DNA of 64,000 nucleotides. It comes from an uncultured Nitrospiraceae bacterium. GTDB lineage: Bacteria; Nitrospirota; Thermodesulfovibrionia; Thermodesulfovibrionales; Dissulfurispiraceae. Shown here piece after piece: positions 31,777-45,007 of this stretch (position 1 is the first letter of the stretch; each line of letters starts with the position of its first letter). The stretch lies in the NCBI GenBank assembly GCA_963727805.1, contig CAVSHF010000003.1, forward strand, positions 704,001 to 768,000, written 5' to 3'. Below the pieces are notes generated by a model. It was not told the DNA's origin, ran no database searches, and saw nothing but the letters and a program-made list of their open reading frames with translations. The position numbers were made by a program, and so were the translations under genes.

Positions 31777-34491
31777 TTATCCTGTCAATTTAGCCGGTTG
31801 TTCAAGCCCGAGCACGACCTTCACCATGTCGCCGTCATCATAAGCCTGCCTGAACCCGTATTTAAAGCCGAATTTTATCATCCTCCTGTTCTCTTTCAGG
31901 ATCTCCATCCAGAGCGATTTCAATTCAACCTTCCGCGCGATGTCGATGCAGTAATCCATAAGCATATTGCCGATGCCTTTCCCCTGCCACTGATCTGATA
32001 CCAGGATCGAAAGTTCAGCACTTTCGAGATCGGGAAGTTTGCTGAGGCGTACTTCGCCGATCAATTCCTCGACGCCGCTGTCGTCCGTTACAGCAGCCAC
32101 AAAAGCCATTTCTCTGTCATAATCAATCTGGCAAAACCTGACGAGCTTTTCGTGAGGCATGTCTTTAAGCAGGCGAGCGAATCTCGAATAGACAGATTCA
32201 TCCGATAATGATTTCAATAATCGGTACATTATTGGCTCGTCTTCTGCGCGGATGGGACGGATCAGAACAGACCTTCCATCCGAGCTGATCATTTCTCTGC
32301 GATATTGTGCAGGATATGGAGGGATTGATAAATGGGATGGGCAAAGGCCCCCACCCGGGATCTTCACTTCCCTAGATTCTATCTTTGCGATGTGGAGCAT
32401 GCTTGCTTCAAGTGCTGTGACACCACTTTCGGAGAACAGGACTGGGTTAATATCGATCTCATCGATTTCGGGTATATCGATAATCAACTTCGAAAATCGC
32501 ACCAAGACTTCTTCGAGTTTCTTCAGAGAGGCCTCGTATCTTGGCTGGCCCTTAAGAAATTGATATATCCTGGTCTCTTCCATCATGCGTCGCGCCAGGG
32601 TCTGATTCAGGGGCGGGAGACCGACTGAATAGTCTTTCTCCGCTTCGCGAAGATCTCCTCCGATGCCAAATACGATCACCGAGCCGAAATTCAGGCTTCT
32701 CTTAGCGCCCACCGACAGCTCGATGCCGCCTTTTTTGATTACAGGTTGGATTATGATCTTTGTGGCATTGTCTCTCAAGGTTGACGCCTTCTCCTGGAGA
32801 GAATGATAAGCTTCGCAGACCTCATTATCGTCTGTTAGGTTCAGCCCTAATGTGCCATTCCCATGGTGATAGGACAACATCTCAGAGTCGAGCATCAATG
32901 CAACAGGATAACCGAGCCTGTGTGCCACGGCAACGGCATCCGCTTCGCTTTGCACTTTGATTGTCTCGATGGCAGGAATGCCGTATATATTGAGTATTTC
33001 AATCGCCTCATTAAGTTGAAGCAATACGCCCTTTCGGTCTGCAACATTGGCTATTATTGTCTTCACTTTGGCAGAGTCGGCCTCGAAATCGCTGAGGATA
33101 GTCTCGGGTGTTTCACGCAGCAGTTTAAGATTGTAGTCGTATCGATACATATAGATGAAACTCTTCACCGCACGCTCAGGGGCATAATATGTTGGGATGC
33201 CGTGACTGTTGAGAAGATGCATGGCATTGTGAACAGTTTTTTCTCCCAGCCATGCGGTAAAGATCGGAATTTCGGGGTTCGTCTTGGCAGACTTCAATAC
33301 CGCTTCAGCAATACCGACAGGGTTCGCTCCCGGAAACGGCACATATATGACCAGGACGCCATCTACTCCGTCATCGTGCAGGCAAGTTGTTACAGATATC
33401 TCATAATCGGCTGGTGACGCATCTGAGAGAAGACGTACAGGATTTTCGATCTGTAACTTTGGGGCCAGATGGGATTCGATCGTAGCCGAAGTCGCGTTAT
33501 CGAGAAGCGCGAGTTCCCCGCCCATACGGTGCAGGGCATCGACAGCCATTTGTATAGGGACGACCGCATTCGAAATGACAGCCAACTGTTTTCCTCGCGG
33601 CCGCCGCTGCTTCGAAAGGGTCTCTGCCATATCGATAATATCAACCATCTCATTTACTTCTACGGCACCGGTTCTCTTGAACGCCGCTTCATATATCCTA
33701 TCTTCTCCAGCAAGAAATCCCGAGTGGGTCACCGCCATTTCCGAAGAGAGATCGAATCTCCCCGACTTTACCACAACTATGGGCTTCCGATCCGCAAAAC
33801 TCCTCACAGCAGCCATGAATCTTCTGCCGTCCTTTATCTGCTGCACATGCAGGACAATCGCGCGTGTCTGCATATCGACCCCCAGAAAATCTATGAGATC
33901 GGAAAAATTGACGTCCAGCTTGCCCCCAAGCGAGATGAAATAGCTGAATCCGACATTTTTGACGATCGCCCGCTCCAGAAATGCCGAAGAGAATATCCCG
34001 CTTTGAGAGATGAAGGCTATATTTCCTTTTTGCGGCATGGCTGTAAAAAGCCCGGCACTGAGGTTCTTTCCGGGCCTTATAAAACCAAATGTATTGGGAC
34101 CGAGTATCCTGTAACCATAAATCGAAGCAAGTTTCCTGATATCTTTTGATAAACGGTGCGAGTCTCTGATCCGATCTTCAAAATCGGGCGCCAGCATAAT
34201 CACGCCCTTTACATTTTTTTGCCCGCATTCATCAAGTGCGGCATAGATGCCTTCTGGGGCGCAGGCCACTATAGCCAAATCCACGGGATCACAAATGTGA
34301 TTGATGCTCTCGTAAGCCTCGATGCCAAGGATATTTTTATAACTGGAATTAACTGGGTAGATCGCCGCTTTTACACCGTTGTTGATCAGGTTTCTGAGCG
34401 CATAATATCCGATGGAGCTCTCGTCCTCGTCGGCGCCAAGGACGGCTATTGTTTTAGGATCAAAAAGCTCATTCAAATTTTTAAGAGACAT
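31777..34491 (-). CDS. Acyl-CoA synthetase (NDP-forming)/GNAT fusion, protein lysine acetyltransferase Pat-like
   Basis: CoA-binding N-terminus, ISQSG, ATP-grasp-like DINP, C-terminal GNAT (CQIDYDREMA, QGKGIG). Confidence 0.85.
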   Translation of the reverse strand: MSLKNLNELFDPKTIAVLGADEDESSIGYYALRNLINNGVKAAIYPVNSSYKNILGIEAYESINHICDPVDLAIVACAPEGIYAALDECGQKNVKGVIMLAPDFEDRIRDSHRLSKDIRKLASIYGYRILGPNTFGFIRPGKNLSAGLFTAMPQKGNIAFISQSGIFSSAFLERAIVKNVGFSYFISLGGKLDVNFSDLIDFLGVDMQTRAIVLHVQQIKDGRRFMAAVRSFADRKPIVVVKSGRFDLSSEMAVTHSGFLAGEDRIYEAAFKRTGAVEVNEMVDIIDMAETLSKQRRPRGKQLAVISNAVVPIQMAVDALHRMGGELALLDNATSATIESHLAPKLQIENPVRLLSDASPADYEISVTTCLHDDGVDGVLVIYVPFPGANPVGIAEAVLKSAKTNPEIPIFTAWLGEKTVHNAMHLLNSHGIPTYYAPERAVKSFIYMYRYDYNLKLLRETPETILSDFEADSAKVKTIIANVADRKGVLLQLNEAIEILNIYGIPAIETIKVQSEADAVAVAHRLGYPVALMLDSEMLSYHHGNGTLGLNLTDDNEVCEAYHSLQEKASTLRDNATKIIIQPVIKKGGIELSVGAKRSLNFGSVIVFGIGGDLREAEKDYSVGLPPLNQTLARRMMEETRIYQFLKGQPRYEASLKKLEEVLVRFSKLIIDIPEIDEIDINPVLFSESGVTALEASMLHIAKIESREVKIPGGGLCPSHLSIPPYPAQYRREMISSDGRSVLIRPIRAEDEPIMYRLLKSLSDESVYSRFARLLKDMPHEKLVRFCQIDYDREMAFVAAVTDDSGVEELIGEVRLSKLPDLESAELSILVSDQWQGKGIGNMLMDYCIDIARKVELKSLWMEILKENRRMIKFGFKYGFRQAYDDGDMVKVVLGLEQPAKLTG

Positions 34492-38307: not shown

Positions 38308-38745
38308 TTTTAAACCTCCTTGATCCGTCCATAATGAGGAACTGACCAACTATTTATAGTATGATTAAAAATTTACTAATGCACAACTTCTCAGTCCGTT
38401 CACGGCCTGAAATGTGTGCGCACTGGTACATTCATTCTGTTCATGTTTATCAGATTCCTAAAAAGAGTTGTTCGCGGTTGTTTGTATTCGCTAAAAGGCA
38501 CAACGCAGCATTTTCAACGTGTGCATAGCGCAAAAAGATACTTCTCCTTGTCAATTCTCGATCCAATGAACCTTTAAACTAAAGGTCTCACTTAGAACAT
38601 TATTAAAGCGGGCACAACACTAACGGGGAGGTTGAGAGGGCTTAGGTCCCATCGGGTACTAACACCACTAAACTTCCGAGCGGTCATGTGATAGATCACA
38701 TGAGCCGGACCTTAGATAGGTGCCGGCCCTCCTCTCCATCAGTCC

Positions 38746-39189
38746 TTACGGTTGTTTAAAAATGTCCGTTACGATTAAAACTGCCGGACTTGTCCCTTTG
38801 TTCTCGAGCCAGTGGATCACATTCCCCTCTTCGGACCAGTTTTGCCCCGCCCCATACTCTTTCGCCACGTCGCCACGGTGTTCCATAACTGTTCCCTTAA
38901 GGATATATGCAGCTCCGGGCCGATCTTTGTGACTATGTACTGCGAGGACTCCGCCAGGCTCGATCGTTAGCATCCGGAGCCGGAGCTGCCGACCTTGCAT
39001 CCCAATGATCTCAGGACCGAGGTCCACTACGGAAAGCGGAGTAATGGTTATACCTTTGTTCTCAGTCGGCGCAGCCTGCTGAGCGCTCGCGTTACCAACT
39101 CCGATGGCAAGCCCGAACCCCAGGAGCCATGCGGCGATTATAACAGTGCCAAAGAGAGCCCTAATACTAAAACATTTTTTCGTAGCCAT
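38746..39189 (-). CDS. Exported cupin-domain protein
   Basis: EPGG...HSHKDRPG..YILKG...HWLENKG. Confidence 0.85.
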   Translation of the reverse strand: MATKKCFSIRALFGTVIIAAWLLGFGLAIGVGNASAQQAAPTENKGITITPLSVVDLGPEIIGMQGRQLRLRMLTIEPGGVLAVHSHKDRPGAAYILKGTVMEHRGDVAKEYGAGQNWSEEGNVIHWLENKGTSPAVLIVTDIFKQP

Positions 39190-39309
39190 AATCGTTTCCT
39201 CCGTTCTTGTTTTGTTAAAGTGTTAGCCCCTTACTTCTTATCTAGTTTAGTCTTGACCTCCACGGTAATTGCTACGTTTTTCCATCTCCTGCAGCACTGA
39301 GTGCACCTG

Positions 39310-39947
39310 GTCGAGTAGGCCGGTGGAATCGCACCACCAGCCCCTCACAGATTCCGTACGTGAACCTCTCGATTCATACGGCTCGTGTCAATCATCAAGT
39401 TGAGTCTTTGCAGTCTCAACCATACACATTGAGCGATAGTTCCTCCTGGTCACCCAGTTGACTGGTACTCTTTGTGGATTGACCCATCCCCTTCCCTCCA
39501 CGGCTTATTATCACCGCTTCATCGGTACTATTGGACGGTCCGACCCCTTCACCTGCATCGATACTTTCCCCCTTCGTTTGCACTTATAGGGTTTTCTCTT
39601 AGCATCAGATGAAGAGTTCCCGCGTTCCACACAGGAGCCTAGATCAGCTTCATGCCGCCTCTATGCCGGACGCCGTTCAGGCAGTAAACAGGTATCTCCT
39701 GAACTAATCCTGATGCAAAGTAAGAACATCAGTTTTGACGTCGTCCTTTTCCTTTCGACACCTCATCAGCGGTTCGCTTACGCTCATCTCTCTGATCCAT
39801 CCCTGACACGATCTAGTCGTGCCTTTTCCTTTAACGCTCACCACCGGAGCCTTTCGACTACAGCAGCTTAAGGTGGGTTGAAGCCTGCTCCTGCAAGCCG
39901 GCTTCGAGGGGCCAACCCTCATCTTCCTGTGCAGCCTCGTGGCGCAC
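39310..39947 (-). mobile_element. ORF-less group II intron (638 nt)
   Basis: 5' GTGCG; domain V GAGCCGTATGAATCGAGAGGTTCACGTACGGAATC (39350-39384); domain VI with A at -7 and 3' end ...CTACTCGAC; no RT ORF. Confidence 0.88.
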
Positions 39948-40508
39948 TTACTCGGGAATCCTTCAGAAACTCCCGACGGCTCACTCCACTCTCCATAGTC
40001 CACCTCCTTCGTACCTCACATCAGCTTCCCCGAAAGTAGCTGAACATACAGCAAGTTTCTCCTCCGGTAGCGCCGCTATCTTATGCTATGGCCAACCACC
40101 TTCGTCCCCTCAAGCGTTTGGCTTTGTCGGGACATCCTTAATTAAGTTTATAAATGCACTTTCGGGGTGTCAATCAGATTTATTTATCTGATCTGATTAT
40201 ATTTTGCAAACCATAGAGCTGATCAGTTCCTTGTGCGTGACTACAGACAGTAAGTGAGTCCGCCCCGCCTCCTGTCGCAGTAATCCTGATCGCTTCGTTT
40301 CTGAAATAGGTAAATATTTTCAACTTCTCTTAAAATATGTACTATTCTTTGGGGTTTTCAGGTGGCAGTTTCGTTGGAATGGAGGGCAGAGTTGCAACGG
40401 ACTAAGTGGTAGATTTCGCCGGAACCAGCAACATCTAATATTCTTGCTCAGTTAGAGTACTTAGCGTATTATAACAACAATGGTATTAATAATATTGAGA
40501 GCGCTCTA

Positions 40509-40835
40509 ATGAAAAAGTGTCCCTTCTGCGCTGAAGATATTCAAGACGAAGCGATAAAGTGTAAGCACTGCGGTGAGTTTCTGCATGCCTCCACCCCATC
40601 ACGCTTTGCAGAAGAAAAATTGCCATGGTATTTCCGAAAAGCCTTTATTATCCTCGCATTCCTCTCTATTGGACCTCTGGCGCTGCCCCTGATTTGGTGG
40701 CGTCCACAAACGTCGCGGGCATGGAAGATCGGACTTACCGTAGTAGTACTCGTTCTCAGTTGGATCTTGTTCCAGGCCACGATGGAATCCATTCGAATAA
40801 TCAAAGAGTATTACAAGCTACTTGAAGGAATATGA
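40509..40835 (+). CDS. Zinc-ribbon membrane protein
   Basis: KKCPFCAEDIQDEAIKCKHCGE plus two TM helices. Confidence 0.8.
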   Translation: MKKCPFCAEDIQDEAIKCKHCGEFLHASTPSRFAEEKLPWYFRKAFIILAFLSIGPLALPLIWWRPQTSRAWKIGLTVVVLVLSWILFQATMESIRIIKEYYKLLEGI

Positions 40836-41057: not shown

Positions 41058-42554
41058 TTACTTGCCTGCACTCTTATCGGCATCAGGCATGCTTTTACAT
41101 ACAACTCTGTTCCTTCCCTCTTGCTTGGCAAGATATAAGGCATCATCAACTCTTTGGATGAACCTGTCGATATTCTCTCTTTTACTGTATTCGGTGACAC
41201 CGAAGCTTGCAGTCAATTCCTTGATACCAGCAAAATTGTTTATCTCTAAAATGCACCTCAATTTCTCTGCCGCAAGACGGGCTCCCTCTACTGAAGTTTC
41301 GGGAAGAACTACCATGAACTCCTCGCCACCCCATCGACCAAACGAATCGAGGGTTCTGAGATTGGCTTGTGCTAGTGATGCTACTTCTCTCAGAACACTG
41401 TCACCGACTAAATGCCCATATGTGTCGTTTATCTTTTTAAATTTGTCTATGTCGAACATGATAAGCGATAACGGACGATTATAACGTATCGCACGCTCTC
41501 GCTCTTTTGAAATAATATGGTCCAGTGCTTGACGGTTTATAAGAGCCGTAAGCTTGTCTATTGAGGCAGCTTTTATTAGCTCCTTTTCAAGTGCTTTTCT
41601 ATCGGTTATGTCGATGCCAGTGCTGATAATGCAACAATCGGCTTCTCCTTTATCGAAAAATATGGAATTAATCCATGCGACTGTTCTTTCTGAACCGTCG
41701 ACAGCAACGAAGCTCGTTTCATAACCATTGATAAATGGCATATCTTTGGCATTAGCAATTGCAAGACGGTGTATGCTTATATCTTCAGCAACGGCAAACA
41801 CATCCCAGAGGTATCGGCCCTTCACATGGTCACTGTTAATGCCGGTCAAACGCTCGCATTCGGCATTGTATCGAATTATTGCCCCTTTAGGATCAAGCAC
41901 GACAATCAGGGTTGAGGTCGTATCCAATATTTTGGCAAGAAATTTACGCTCCTTTGCAAGTATCTTTTCAACTTTTTTACGCTCCGTGATATCCCGAATA
42001 GCAGCTACATGGACCATACGTCCCTGATAGTCAAAATAGCTGCTGGCGATCTCGACTGGAAACACTTTACCACTTTTATTGCGGTGCCAGCGGAAGGGAA
42101 TATGTGTCTGGTGTGTGGCTACAGCCTCACGGGTCTCATCCGGTTCCGCGGATATATCATCAACTTTTAAAAGGAGGAATTCTTCGCGTGTGTAAGCGTA
42201 GAGATTCAACGATGCGACGTTAGCGTCAAGAATCCGGTTAGTTTCACAATCCACCAGGAGTATCGCGTCGGACTCAACCTCGAATAGGCGGCGATACCGC
42301 TTCTCAGTTTCACGGGCATGAATAATTAAACAAACAAGAAGATAACATACAACCAGAGAAACAAAAAAAGAGCAAACGAGACCCGTAATACATAAATCAT
42401 GAGTAACTTCCCCGTGAAAATAAATACTCATTGGTATTACTATAATCTGCGTGAAGATTATCGCTAAAGCTATTGATAACCCAATAAGGCGGGCTGGTTT
42501 CATCGATATCAGCTTGTCGATGAGTAGACTTTTACCTGAAGGCAATAGTTGCAT
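41058..42554 (-). CDS. Membrane PAS-PAS diguanylate cyclase
   Basis: 2 TM, 2 PAS, DKLT, GGEEF with RxxD I-site (RTLD). Confidence 0.9.
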   Translation of the reverse strand: MQLLPSGKSLLIDKLISMKPARLIGLSIALAIIFTQIIVIPMSIYFHGEVTHDLCITGLVCSFFVSLVVCYLLVCLIIHARETEKRYRRLFEVESDAILLVDCETNRILDANVASLNLYAYTREEFLLLKVDDISAEPDETREAVATHQTHIPFRWHRNKSGKVFPVEIASSYFDYQGRMVHVAAIRDITERKKVEKILAKERKFLAKILDTTSTLIVVLDPKGAIIRYNAECERLTGINSDHVKGRYLWDVFAVAEDISIHRLAIANAKDMPFINGYETSFVAVDGSERTVAWINSIFFDKGEADCCIISTGIDITDRKALEKELIKAASIDKLTALINRQALDHIISKERERAIRYNRPLSLIMFDIDKFKKINDTYGHLVGDSVLREVASLAQANLRTLDSFGRWGGEEFMVVLPETSVEGARLAAEKLRCILEINNFAGIKELTASFGVTEYSKRENIDRFIQRVDDALYLAKQEGRNRVVCKSMPDADKSAGK

Positions 42555-43009
42555 ACCAGATAGCCCCTTTTATCATAAAAAAGGAAGTTTACTTGATATT
42601 AGCACACAAAGGGTCTTAATGGATTTTTGAATAACCCTTCTTCGTATTAAAGATTCATAACTTTGCCCATCATATTACTTAACCTTACTAACATATTGCC
42701 ACACACATCATTTTCCCATTCATCCCGGGTTAAATTATTCGCAAAACACTTCCGCAAAAAAAGCACAAAGTATTCGATACCGCATGCGGCTGTTGGTTTC
42801 ACAAAATTGGCTAGTAGAGATTAAAAAATTATAACAGACAATAAGGAATGAAGATATGAGGTCTAGTTTGGTGGTCGATTAATTTAAGACACACTAAATT
42901 CTTCTTCGAAAACAATTATGTCGCAGATATTTTACCTTGTCAATTGTGATAATACATTTTCTCCATCAAGGAAAATTCCTTAAAAAAGCTACAAATGAAC
43001 GAATATCGG

Positions 43010-45007
43010 CTAGACGTTAGCGCAATAATGATTATAATTATTACGGCCGAGTCGTTTTGCCTGGTACATTGCCATATCGGCGTTTTTCAGCAAGGTCTCT
43101 CCGTCCTCACCATCATCAGGCGACACAGAAATCCCTATGCTCGCGCTAATCGTCAGTTTATGCCCATTGGCGATGATCGGGATTGCCAACTCCTCGATGA
43201 TTCTTTCTGCGACTGCAGCAGCCTCGCTCTGATGCTCGATATCCTGAAGAACGACTACAAACTCATCGCCGCCGAGCCGGGAGAGGGTATCCTTCTTACG
43301 AAGGCATACAGAAATTCTATTGGCTGTCTCCCTTAATACATCGTCACCCACATCGTGACCGTAGCGGTCATTTATCAATTTGAAATGGTCAAGATCCAGG
43401 AACATGATGCCAGCCTTCTTTCTCTGGTCGTCTGCAGAAACAACAGCGAGTCGAATACGATCCTGTAGCAGGATTCGGTTCGGTAATGCTGTGAGAGCGT
43501 CGTAAAATGCCATTCCCCGAATACGTTCTTCCGATTCGACCCGCTCAGTTACATCGCTGATTACTAAAACCGCTCCAGCAGCAGCTTCAGCATGGACGAC
43601 CGGTGTCATTGTGAATTCGAATGTGCCGCGGGGCTTTTCAAGGCTTTGAGACCATTTGAACTTCCCCTGCTCTGCCAAAGACGCAATATCCGGCCATACC
43701 GGCGGAGGGACGTCAGTGCCGAATATCACACAATATCCATATTGGTCTCGAACCTTCTGCAGCGTGGCCCTAAATAAGTCTTCGGCAGCGCGGTTCATCC
43801 GTACTATCCGACTCTCTCTGTCAAGGGTTATAACCGCCTCATGTACCGAGTTGAATGTGCGCTCCCAGTCTCCGGCGGCCTGTTGCAAAGAGCCGAACGT
43901 CTGTTTGAGTTTTGCAGTCAGACCCAAAAAAGATGACGCGAGCATACCGATTTCATCATGAGAATGGATCTTCTTTAGGATATCAAAAGACGAGTCTGCG
44001 ACAGCGTAAGTCCCCTTCGTCTCTGCATCTTCAAGTTCTCTGCTGATCCTAAGCGCAACACTTTCCAAATGATGAAGCGGTCCTGTTACACGGCGTACTG
44101 CCACAGCGCCGATTATGATAACAAGCAGTATTGCAATGCCCGCCATGAAGATGATATGCTCACGTGCCTCCGAAATGGGAGCGTAGGCCTCCTTCTGCGG
44201 TACTTGGACAGCAACGATCCAATCTGTCTTCGGAACCTGTCTAACCGCAAGCAGCATGGGCACACCCTGCGAGTTCACAGCCTCGCCGCCCCCCTGGAAG
44301 CCTCCGAGCGCGGCGTCCATTATCTTGTTTTTCCCCGCCTCAACATAGGTAAGCAACCGGTCGCCCTCTGGGTGCAAGACCAACTGACGAGCCCTGTCAA
44401 ATATGAACAAGTAACCGGAATCCCCGAACTTCTGTTTGCGGTAACCTCCTAAGGCTTCCTCTGACAGAAGATCTGCAGAGCAGGCTACTACAGCTATGAA
44501 CTGCCCGTGCGTATCATGAACCGGAGCAGTGAATGTAAGCACCGGCAGTCCCGTCCGCGCGGACTTGTAAGGCTTTCCGAGGATACCATTTTTCTCCCGA
44601 ATGGTCCGCTGGTAATATTCCCTGTATGCGAACGTTTGCCCCTTCAATTCTGGATGGGAAGGATAATCCCCTAAAAATCTCCCTTCGCTGTCGAGTATGA
44701 ATATTCCGTTCTTGAATTTGGGGAATGTCTCGAACATTTTTTTTAAATGCGATTCCACCTCGTTCATGTCGCCTCTGAGTAGGGCTTCCTCAGGCAGTGT
44801 AACAGCGACGGCGCGAGCGTCCAAGAGGCCTTCGTCAACAAATGCTTCGATTCCGTGGGCAGCAAGCTTTGCCTGGCCGTCAATGCCCTTGAAAATGGTT
44901 TGCTTGAGAGACACTTCCTGGTAATGCACCAAAAAGCGTCCTGAAATTATAAGCACGGTGCTAACAATTATCGCAAGCAGTAAAATTGTCTTCGTGCCTA
45001 GATTCAT
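43010..45007 (-). CDS. dCache-HAMP-PAS diguanylate cyclase
   Basis: TM-Cache-TM, DEIG, PAS, GGDEF with RxxD (RKKD). Confidence 0.9.
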   Translation of the reverse strand: MNLGTKTILLLAIIVSTVLIISGRFLVHYQEVSLKQTIFKGIDGQAKLAAHGIEAFVDEGLLDARAVAVTLPEEALLRGDMNEVESHLKKMFETFPKFKNGIFILDSEGRFLGDYPSHPELKGQTFAYREYYQRTIREKNGILGKPYKSARTGLPVLTFTAPVHDTHGQFIAVVACSADLLSEEALGGYRKQKFGDSGYLFIFDRARQLVLHPEGDRLLTYVEAGKNKIMDAALGGFQGGGEAVNSQGVPMLLAVRQVPKTDWIVAVQVPQKEAYAPISEAREHIIFMAGIAILLVIIIGAVAVRRVTGPLHHLESVALRISRELEDAETKGTYAVADSSFDILKKIHSHDEIGMLASSFLGLTAKLKQTFGSLQQAAGDWERTFNSVHEAVITLDRESRIVRMNRAAEDLFRATLQKVRDQYGYCVIFGTDVPPPVWPDIASLAEQGKFKWSQSLEKPRGTFEFTMTPVVHAEAAAGAVLVISDVTERVESEERIRGMAFYDALTALPNRILLQDRIRLAVVSADDQRKKAGIMFLDLDHFKLINDRYGHDVGDDVLRETANRISVCLRKKDTLSRLGGDEFVVVLQDIEHQSEAAAVAERIIEELAIPIIANGHKLTISASIGISVSPDDGEDGETLLKNADMAMYQAKRLGRNNYNHYCANV

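Follow-up and report, generated by a model that had tools for sequence, protein, structure and literature searches.

Group II introns without an ORF are described in reviews as rare in bacteria and as found beside a closely related RT-encoding intron, and non-mobile derivatives are described there as short-lived (PMC4424553, PMC3245105). The initial annotation of the locus analysed here had called such introns uncommon, which stands in a relative sense only, as one survey gives 888 of 13,041 introns as lacking an IEP (PMC8919778). Trans-mobilisation of ORF-less bacterial introns is already known (PMC2882425). In the case of TeI3 of Thermosynechococcus elongatus, several copies are described at EBS-matched sites together with a related IEP in the genome, and the intron is reported to have originated by deletion from a resident ORF-containing intron, whose IEP has an En domain (PMC2882425). 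In introns of class D (IIB3, RmInt1 type), the IEP is of the RT-X-only kind and there is a lagging-template bias (PMC3552965, PMC4615759, PMC5010178); insertion in the lagging-template orientation is described for En-minus RmInt1 (PMC5010178). C.te.I1 of Clostridium tetani is another ORF-less bacterial group II intron; it is presented as an intron of a host gene that only splices, and its genome is reported to lack a related IEP (PMC4424553). IIC-attC introns and IIB introns of integron arrays are described as favouring a repeated site located between gene modules (PMC7923331), and HYERs are small ORF-less ribozymes of about 0.6 kb (described via PMC11754743).

The intron described here is a complete ORF-less group II intron of IIB type, 638 nt long, on the minus strand (39947-39310) of the window, that is, the whole 64-kb stretch of DNA that was analysed. 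Unlike TeI3, as described, it matches the resident helper candidate in domain I only, and this helper is class-D-like and has no En. It resembles class D introns in its ribozyme (that of the S. meliloti introns is about 71% like it over nt 14-466), but lacks an ORF, and has its own domain II (DII), mini domain IV (DIV) and Ic tip, and a 35-nt domain V (DV); thus, its ribozyme is related to class D, while a class D RT-X protein is not encoded. In contrast to C.te.I1, it is multi-copy, lies outside clear long genes and has candidate helpers in the genome. In contrast to IIC-attC introns and HYERs, it uses EBS1, EBS2 and EBS3 pairing in place of a stem-loop and is not IIC, and the repeat at its targets is not a demonstrated attC.

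Every feature that had been read from the letters of this locus was found again at its given position. The proposed Rfam search gave two matches across the 64-kb window, both within the intron: group-II-D1D4-2 (RF01999) at 39920-39801 (109.8 bits) and Intron_gpII (RF00029) at 39386-39310 (45.4 bits against a cut-off of 40). The 5' end is GUGCG as claimed (39947-39943), in agreement with the group II GUGYG, and the last bases are AC, in agreement with AY. The predicted secondary structure has the six domains of a group II intron, all on the minus strand: domain I (DI; nt 6-329, 39619-39942), DII (39544-39616), domain III (DIII; 39483-39538), DIV (39388-39482), DV (39350-39384) and domain VI (DVI; 39313-39346). 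The annotation would have been undermined by domains I-III being unable to fold; each of domains I-VI folds separately, and the fold of the whole intron beats 20 of 20 shuffles (z -4.4). DV carries the AGC triad and the AC bulge that had been noticed, and has one extra base, an A, on the 3' side of its basal stem, which is also present in the metagenomic relatives L101 and L111. The bulged A of DVI at -7 is 39316. DIV, about 95 nt long, consists of a basal stem, a DIVa-like arm and a second hairpin (39420-39399). It contains the AGGAGG pointed out earlier and, as claimed, no RT: the RVT_1 search was negative, and no sense frame of the intron (all three were read) has a stop-free run of more than 80 codons, the length of the longest one. 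The core of the DIVa-like arm, CAAC-hairpin-GGAGGA (39441-39460), is a putative maturase-binding site, the same element being found just 5' of the helper start codon.

The EBS1-IBS1 match was found as claimed. The EBS1 hairpin (39710-39732, minus strand) has the loop UCUUACUUU, in which UUACUU (39723-39718, possibly extended by 39717) pairs at 6/6 positions, one of them G-U, with the IBS1 GAGTAA of the 5' exon (39953-39948). The earlier reading had omitted EBS2 (GGAAA, 39752-39748) and EBS3 (G, 39661). EBS2 has a TTTCC-like IBS2 at -13 to -9 as its partner at most sites, and in the window a partial one, ATTCC (39959-39955, 4/5 pairs). EBS3 pairs with the C at +1 (IBS3, 39309 in the window), which is present at 10/10 sites, as against an A at this position of the helpers and a T at +1 of their sites. 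The EBS1 hairpin stem is one base shorter than that of the helper. A contig of run X14 over 39310-39906, as well as L101 and L111, are 95% like the 638-nt intron and have the helper-type EBS1 stem, A as EBS3 and T at +1; in these variants, the one-base difference in the EBS1 stem accompanies a one-base shift in the spacing of IBS2. All three pairings of subgroup IIB, EBS1-IBS1, EBS2-IBS2 and EBS3-IBS3, are present, and the intron is assigned to IIB because its sites match EBS2 GGAAA, EBS1 UUACUU(U) and EBS3 G. An identity as a subgroup IIC intron or a HYER was rejected, given the EBS2-IBS2 pairing and the absence of a terminator-like site upstream on the intron strand.

The search for sister copies, suggested with the initial annotation, was productive. 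In the genome of the bacterium (G000; 3.89 Mb in 5 contigs, rated 100% complete), BLAST revealed 10 full copies at unrelated flanks, nine of them identical and one with a single change. Moreover, at C5:35426 a DNA contig of run X4 represents an empty site: it skips exactly 638 nt, with 120 and 280 nt aligned on either side and no duplication, and the same run also contains the intron (0 mismatches over 597 nt). As the 10 copies share exactly 638 nt and the DNA contig skips exactly 638 nt, the intron boundaries are fixed independently. The intron thus varies in its presence among near-identical strains. The site consensus is TTYCCnRAAGTAA followed, across the insertion point, by C; C at +1 and C at -9 occur in 10/10 sites, and five more positions are conserved in 9/10. 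Scored for pairing on a scale of 13 points, the ten sites reach 9.0-12.5, the window site being the lowest. Pairing as the sole explanation of site choice was rejected, since about 680 unfilled genomic sites pair at a score of at least 10.5 of 13. None of the copies is clearly placed inside a long gene; one is found within a frame of 122 codons whose status is doubtful. Eight of the ten copies are on the G-rich strand, which weakly hints at the orientation expected for lagging-template insertion and is confounded by co-oriented repeats. In run X1, which may be the source sample and hence is not independent, intron contigs have a depth of 31-33 and the window flanks of 4-6. Two pieces of the intron (0 and 1 mismatch), with no flanks, were found in RNA run X5, which is not proof of transcription. 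No exon-exon joint was found at window positions 38700-40600 in the contigs of four runs (two DNA, two RNA), in which the flanks are barely covered. Five relatives yielded no empty counterpart of the window site, the only matches there being to the cupin gene and to intron relatives.

The window copy splits a mini-ORF (39272-39996, minus strand) that would have 28 codons if spliced, with AAGGAGG in front, and that, judged from its reading, is probably a gene remnant. Its 5' exon (39996-39948) encodes SRREFLK, which we take to be a twin-arginine-like motif, and with its strong SD the frame is probably what is left of an exported protein that has been lost. A sigma-70-like promoter match (TTGACA-17-TAAACT, 40145-40173) lies on the intron strand, about 200 nt upstream; such matches are not in excess over chance (2 found, 2.5 expected). 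The downstream gene, on the same strand (38746-39189), encodes a 147-aa protein with a Cupin_2 domain. Elsewhere in the window there are GGDEF-type genes (41058-45007) and, on the minus strand, a gene for a 904-aa protein whose sequence resembles a fusion of an acyl-CoA synthetase with a GNAT domain (31777-34491). The claim that the intron homed here holds as far as EBS-guided insertion is concerned, but the window site is not the preferred one: its pairing is the weakest of ten and it is outside the repeat described below. Having the lowest pairing score and no repeat-site score, the window copy is considered a secondary insertion.

A likely candidate for the RT-encoding helper that the initial annotation had proposed to look for was found in two copies. 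G000 contains 15 DV-DVI matches and 6 RVT_1 matches, and its class-D-like RT introns are H1 (C3:1128094-1126260, 1835 nt, with CYADD in the protein) and H2 (C5:46945-45111, 1835 nt, RYADD, intact), which are 99.9% alike and occupy different sites; the H intron has thus itself been copied recently. Their protein is a 412-aa group II RT/maturase (TIGR04416, RVT_1 and GIIM) with no match to endonuclease families. That of H2 is 64% identical to a 419-aa S. meliloti IEP and 44.6% identical to Sh.dy.I1 (the other resident RTs, 29% and 34%), and Table S1 of PMC3552965 assigns Sh.dy.I1 to class D; by this similarity H1 and H2 are class-D-like. The other two RT types of the genome have 490 aa (1 copy) and 436 aa (3 copies), the latter being group II RT/maturases at C3:647802, C3:2327689 and C5:120139 with no RF00029 match nearby. 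Among the three RT types, CAAC-hairpin-GGAGGA precedes the start codon only in H, and it recurs in DIV of the 638-nt intron; in RmInt1, DIVa, which includes the SD, has been proposed as the primary site for the IEP (PMC4615759). Two more ORF-less introns are present in single copies. Intron B (C3:2011708-2012346, plus strand), which starts with TTGTG, belongs to the same ORF-less family as domains II-VI of the 638-nt intron, and its EBS1, EBS2 and EBS3 match its own site. Its flanks resemble what is presumably the zinc-finger end of a TnpB-type gene. Intron C (C3:690343-689720, minus strand), 624 nt long, ends with CUCC instead of AC.

The family to which intron B belongs extends beyond this genome. 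A 28-letter DII pattern matched 9 loci in a species-genome collection, and its stricter form 34 loci in metagenomes; in viral contigs, the original form had 0 matches. Of these 43 pattern loci, some of which are near-duplicates, 31 have DV within 240 nt, 5 have an RT ORF, and 7 are cut, interrupted or fragments; as the pattern was designed from ORF-less members, RT-bearing members of the clade could be missed. When DII-DIV was searched for at the DNA level in 400 genomes from the phylum, two candidates being scored per genome, the family was detected in one genome besides G000. The named hosts of ORF-less members include Nitrospirota, Desulfobacterota, Desulfosporosinus (with an interrupted DV) and Mycoavidus. 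BLAST against plasmids added a copy with the same DIV in a cultured soil strain of Caballeronia (SBC2), in which a class-D-like RT is present as well. It also added two ORF-less introns whose DIVs are of other kinds and which nest inside the family on long branches. L129, on a Methylosinus plasmid, and L130, on a Neochlamydia plasmid, are ORF-less and full-length, and their short DIVs differ; among plasmid-encoded proteins, the nearest relative of that of H2 (70%) is found on this Neochlamydia plasmid. A class-D-like RT (at least 50% identity to H2) is present in both close relatives bearing a family member (G003 and G010) and in 2 of 5 other, more distant draft genomes with family members. 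Members often occur in tandem with, interrupted by or nested in other group II introns, with the other intron after DVI (L120), inside DV (L052, L118, L126) or in the upstream flank (L099, L115).

A single DIV structure fits 30 family sequences, with 94.6% of cells paired and two-sided changes at 21 of 27 pairs; the pairing exceeds that of 500/500 shuffles and of all slid controls, with the structure being derived from the same alignment. Among the 26 ORF-less rows that could be read, EBS3 matches IBS3 in 25 (shuffle mean 7.9), and in the single exception another intron is inserted at the junction. EBS1-IBS1 pairing reaches at least 5/6 in 19 of 24 rows (22 ORF-less, 2 RT), with a total of 130.5 as compared to a shuffle maximum of 105.5; this set is what was left of 28 loci, all usable at their 5' end, once 4 near-duplicates had been removed, two of the 5' ends having been set by hand. 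Because the varied EBS sequences match their own exons, members insert by pairing and are not merely inherited.

The two halves of the 638-nt intron have different relatives. Its nt 1-325 are identical to H2 at 296 of 325 positions (91%) and to B at 224, whereas nt 326-523 match H2 at 110 of 198 positions (56%) and B at 158. The best breakpoint, nt 327-332, coincides with the DI/DII junction, and 0 of 1000 permutations were as extreme. Thus, judged by alignment, the intron is mosaic, combining a helper-type DI with domains II-VI of the ORF-less family. Inside the helper-type DI there is one 19-nt patch of the ORF-less type, the tip of subdomain Ic with its GAAA loop (39844-39862), which is 32% identical to H2 and 68-79% to family members. 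That this patch obligatorily follows the DII type was rejected, as L054 and L118 combine the family DII with a helper-type tip. An assembly error was rejected as well, as the junction is crossed by contigs of runs X2 and X4 and by loci L101 and L111.

Phylogenetic trees, all midpoint-rooted, gave the same picture. In the DI tree, the 638-nt intron grouped with L101, L111, L047 and H2 (support 100/99), and a single clade of the whole family was rejected (p-AU 1.4e-4). In the DII-VI tree, from which 3 near-duplicates were excluded, a branch with support of 100/99 separated 25 ORF-less rows from 3 RT rows and intron C; without DIV, and with 3 broken-end rows also excluded, 22 ORF-less rows were separated with support of 98/99. 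In the DII-III tree with 7 RT rows, support for the family clade was just 86/80. Cross-groupings of the halves were rejected (p-AU 7e-5 and 3.5e-6), the latter value applying to the grouping of the 3' half with H2 in the manner of DI. An origin of the intron as a deletion derivative of the resident helper was rejected by these AU tests of a DII-VI grouping with H2. A single clade of all ORF-less class-D-like introns was also rejected (p-AU 2e-7): intron C, by its grouping with H in DII-VI, is an independent ORF loss from an H-like class D lineage.

A second pair of introns shows the same relation. The ORF-less L120 has a class-D-like RT intron immediately after it, and the EBS1 of the two is the same; their DI are 90.5% identical and form a clade (100/100), while DII-III of the RT intron groups with H2 and not with L120. 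DI sharing is not universal, since in G003 and G010 the resident class-D-like intron and the ORF-less intron do not share DI.

The initial annotation had described the intron as a non-autonomous mobile ribozyme, and this reading is supported by the ten copies, the matched EBS1, EBS2 and EBS3, the empty allele and the RT-encoding relatives in the genome. We consider it likely, from these sequence comparisons, that the intron is spliced and retrohomed in trans by the H1/H2 RT/maturase, with which it shares DI. The 638-nt RNA keeps the six domains and, in its mini DIV, the helper-type CAAC-hairpin-GGAGGA, to which the helper IEP would bind, promoting lariat splicing. Targets, judged by their sequences, are picked by EBS2, EBS1 and EBS3 pairing, mostly at a short repeat site of G000. 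As the helper has no endonuclease domain, insertion would be into the lagging-strand template, with copying by the helper RT. The window copy is a secondary-site insertion into the 28-codon remnant upstream of the cupin gene. An exchange of DI may have taken place at the conserved junction with DII, and no direction is assigned to it; possible routes include a deletion between tandem introns, which arrangements such as that of L120 would allow, and RT template switching.

Against H as the helper, no exon-exon joint was seen in the four runs, H1 has CYADD, and a class-D-like RT was found in only 2 of the 5 more distant draft genomes. Domains II-VI of the intron are only about 60% like those of H, and an RT lineage with a family-type DII could be the true partner. 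As to the former, heterologous IEP/RNA pairs of much closer relatives of RmInt1 are reported to have mostly lost mobility (PMC4615759). As to the latter, the L053 lineage consists of five RT-encoding loci (L053, L098, L102, L103, L114; 5 of the 43 matches) whose protein is about 75% identical to that of H2; its DII-III is 78% identical to that of the 638-nt intron, as compared with 59% for H2, and the lineage is sister to the family. It is a candidate for the closest ancestor that lost its ORF, or is itself recombinant. Accordingly, retrohoming might depend on a protein from another RT, encoded either by an L053-type intron that has since been lost or resides on an unassembled replicon, or by one of the two further resident RT types (490 aa and 436 aa). 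However, none of the six RVT_1 matches in this genome, rated 100% complete, is an L053-type intron, the other resident RT types lack CAAC..GGAGGA, and it is H that has DI in common with the intron and a recent copy event of its own. We regard a different source of the protein as unlikely, though it deserves more weight than any other alternative.

The mosaic itself could be questioned if rates were uneven or sequences convergent, and the element had simply descended long ago from the helper lineage by deletion of the ORF. Some room for this is left by the shortness of the alignments (138-329 columns) and by the many deep nodes without resolution. Nevertheless, the breakpoint is sharp at the DI/DII junction, alternative groupings are rejected by AU tests in both halves, and the same pattern recurs in the independent pair of L120 and its RT intron. 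Moreover, a simple derivative of H does exist in the form of intron C, and it looks different, grouping with H in DII-VI. Such an origin is therefore improbable and already largely refuted.

The copies might also have spread as DNA, by recombination or gene conversion of repeat arrays, with no RNA stage. The sites do have a repeat context: four copies lie 32 nt upstream of GA(T/G)(T/A)ATAAGT, and uninterrupted sites with this 32-nt spacer number 28, as compared with 0-4 at eight other spacers. A repeat site neighbour about 46 nt off is present at 5 of 10 copies and at 14 of 678 unfilled well-pairing sites, and GA at -15/-14 at 7 of 10 and 48 of 678, respectively. A repeat-site score, which overlaps IBS and is partly circular, is positive in 8 of 10 copies. 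Co-oriented arrays of 56-bp double sites were seen between gene modules at C3:779-804 kb, C3:28-31 kb, C5:26-67 kb and C5:557-567 kb. Directly after several of them begins what we assume to be an IS110-like element, and an integrase-like gene, present in 8 copies in G000, occurs near some of the arrays, as would suit a DNA-based process. However, the flanks have no relation to one another outside the site, comparison with the empty allele reveals a clean insertion of 638 nt that left no duplication, two copies (that of the window and C3:2274162) are outside repeats and still keep EBS1 and EBS3 pairing, and EBS and IBS covary across the family, so that spread as DNA is very improbable. Maturase-free splicing and reverse splicing, with the DNA copied by host enzymes, is the least probable of all, since the family keeps a DIVa-like element under structural selection, which fits protein binding, and a cDNA step needs an RT anyway.

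A mobile ORF-less IIB intron that has spread recently, as trans-retrohoming with the H1/H2 protein would explain, is of a known kind; the new part is the family across phyla and the sharing of DI. Full-text literature searches brought up no paper that describes an ORF-less class D lineage spanning phyla or an exchange of DI in nature; members may be listed in the supplements of PMC8919778, the Zimmerly database or Simon et al. 2008. Tentatively, and with slightly less than even confidence, we propose that a single long-lived protein-less intron lineage exists across bacterial phyla as a SINE-like parasite of class D introns, which would keep the compact DII-VI and the maturase-docking mini DIV, repeatedly swap in DI of a co-resident class D intron, and then outnumber its helper. 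If true, a stable ORF-less family that retargets and trades DI with its helpers across phyla would demonstrate a lasting non-autonomous lifestyle. It would also reveal that the ribozyme is naturally modular at the boundary of DI and DII, which would argue against strict RNA-protein co-evolution, and would bear on how intron-encoded maturases turned into general splicing factors.
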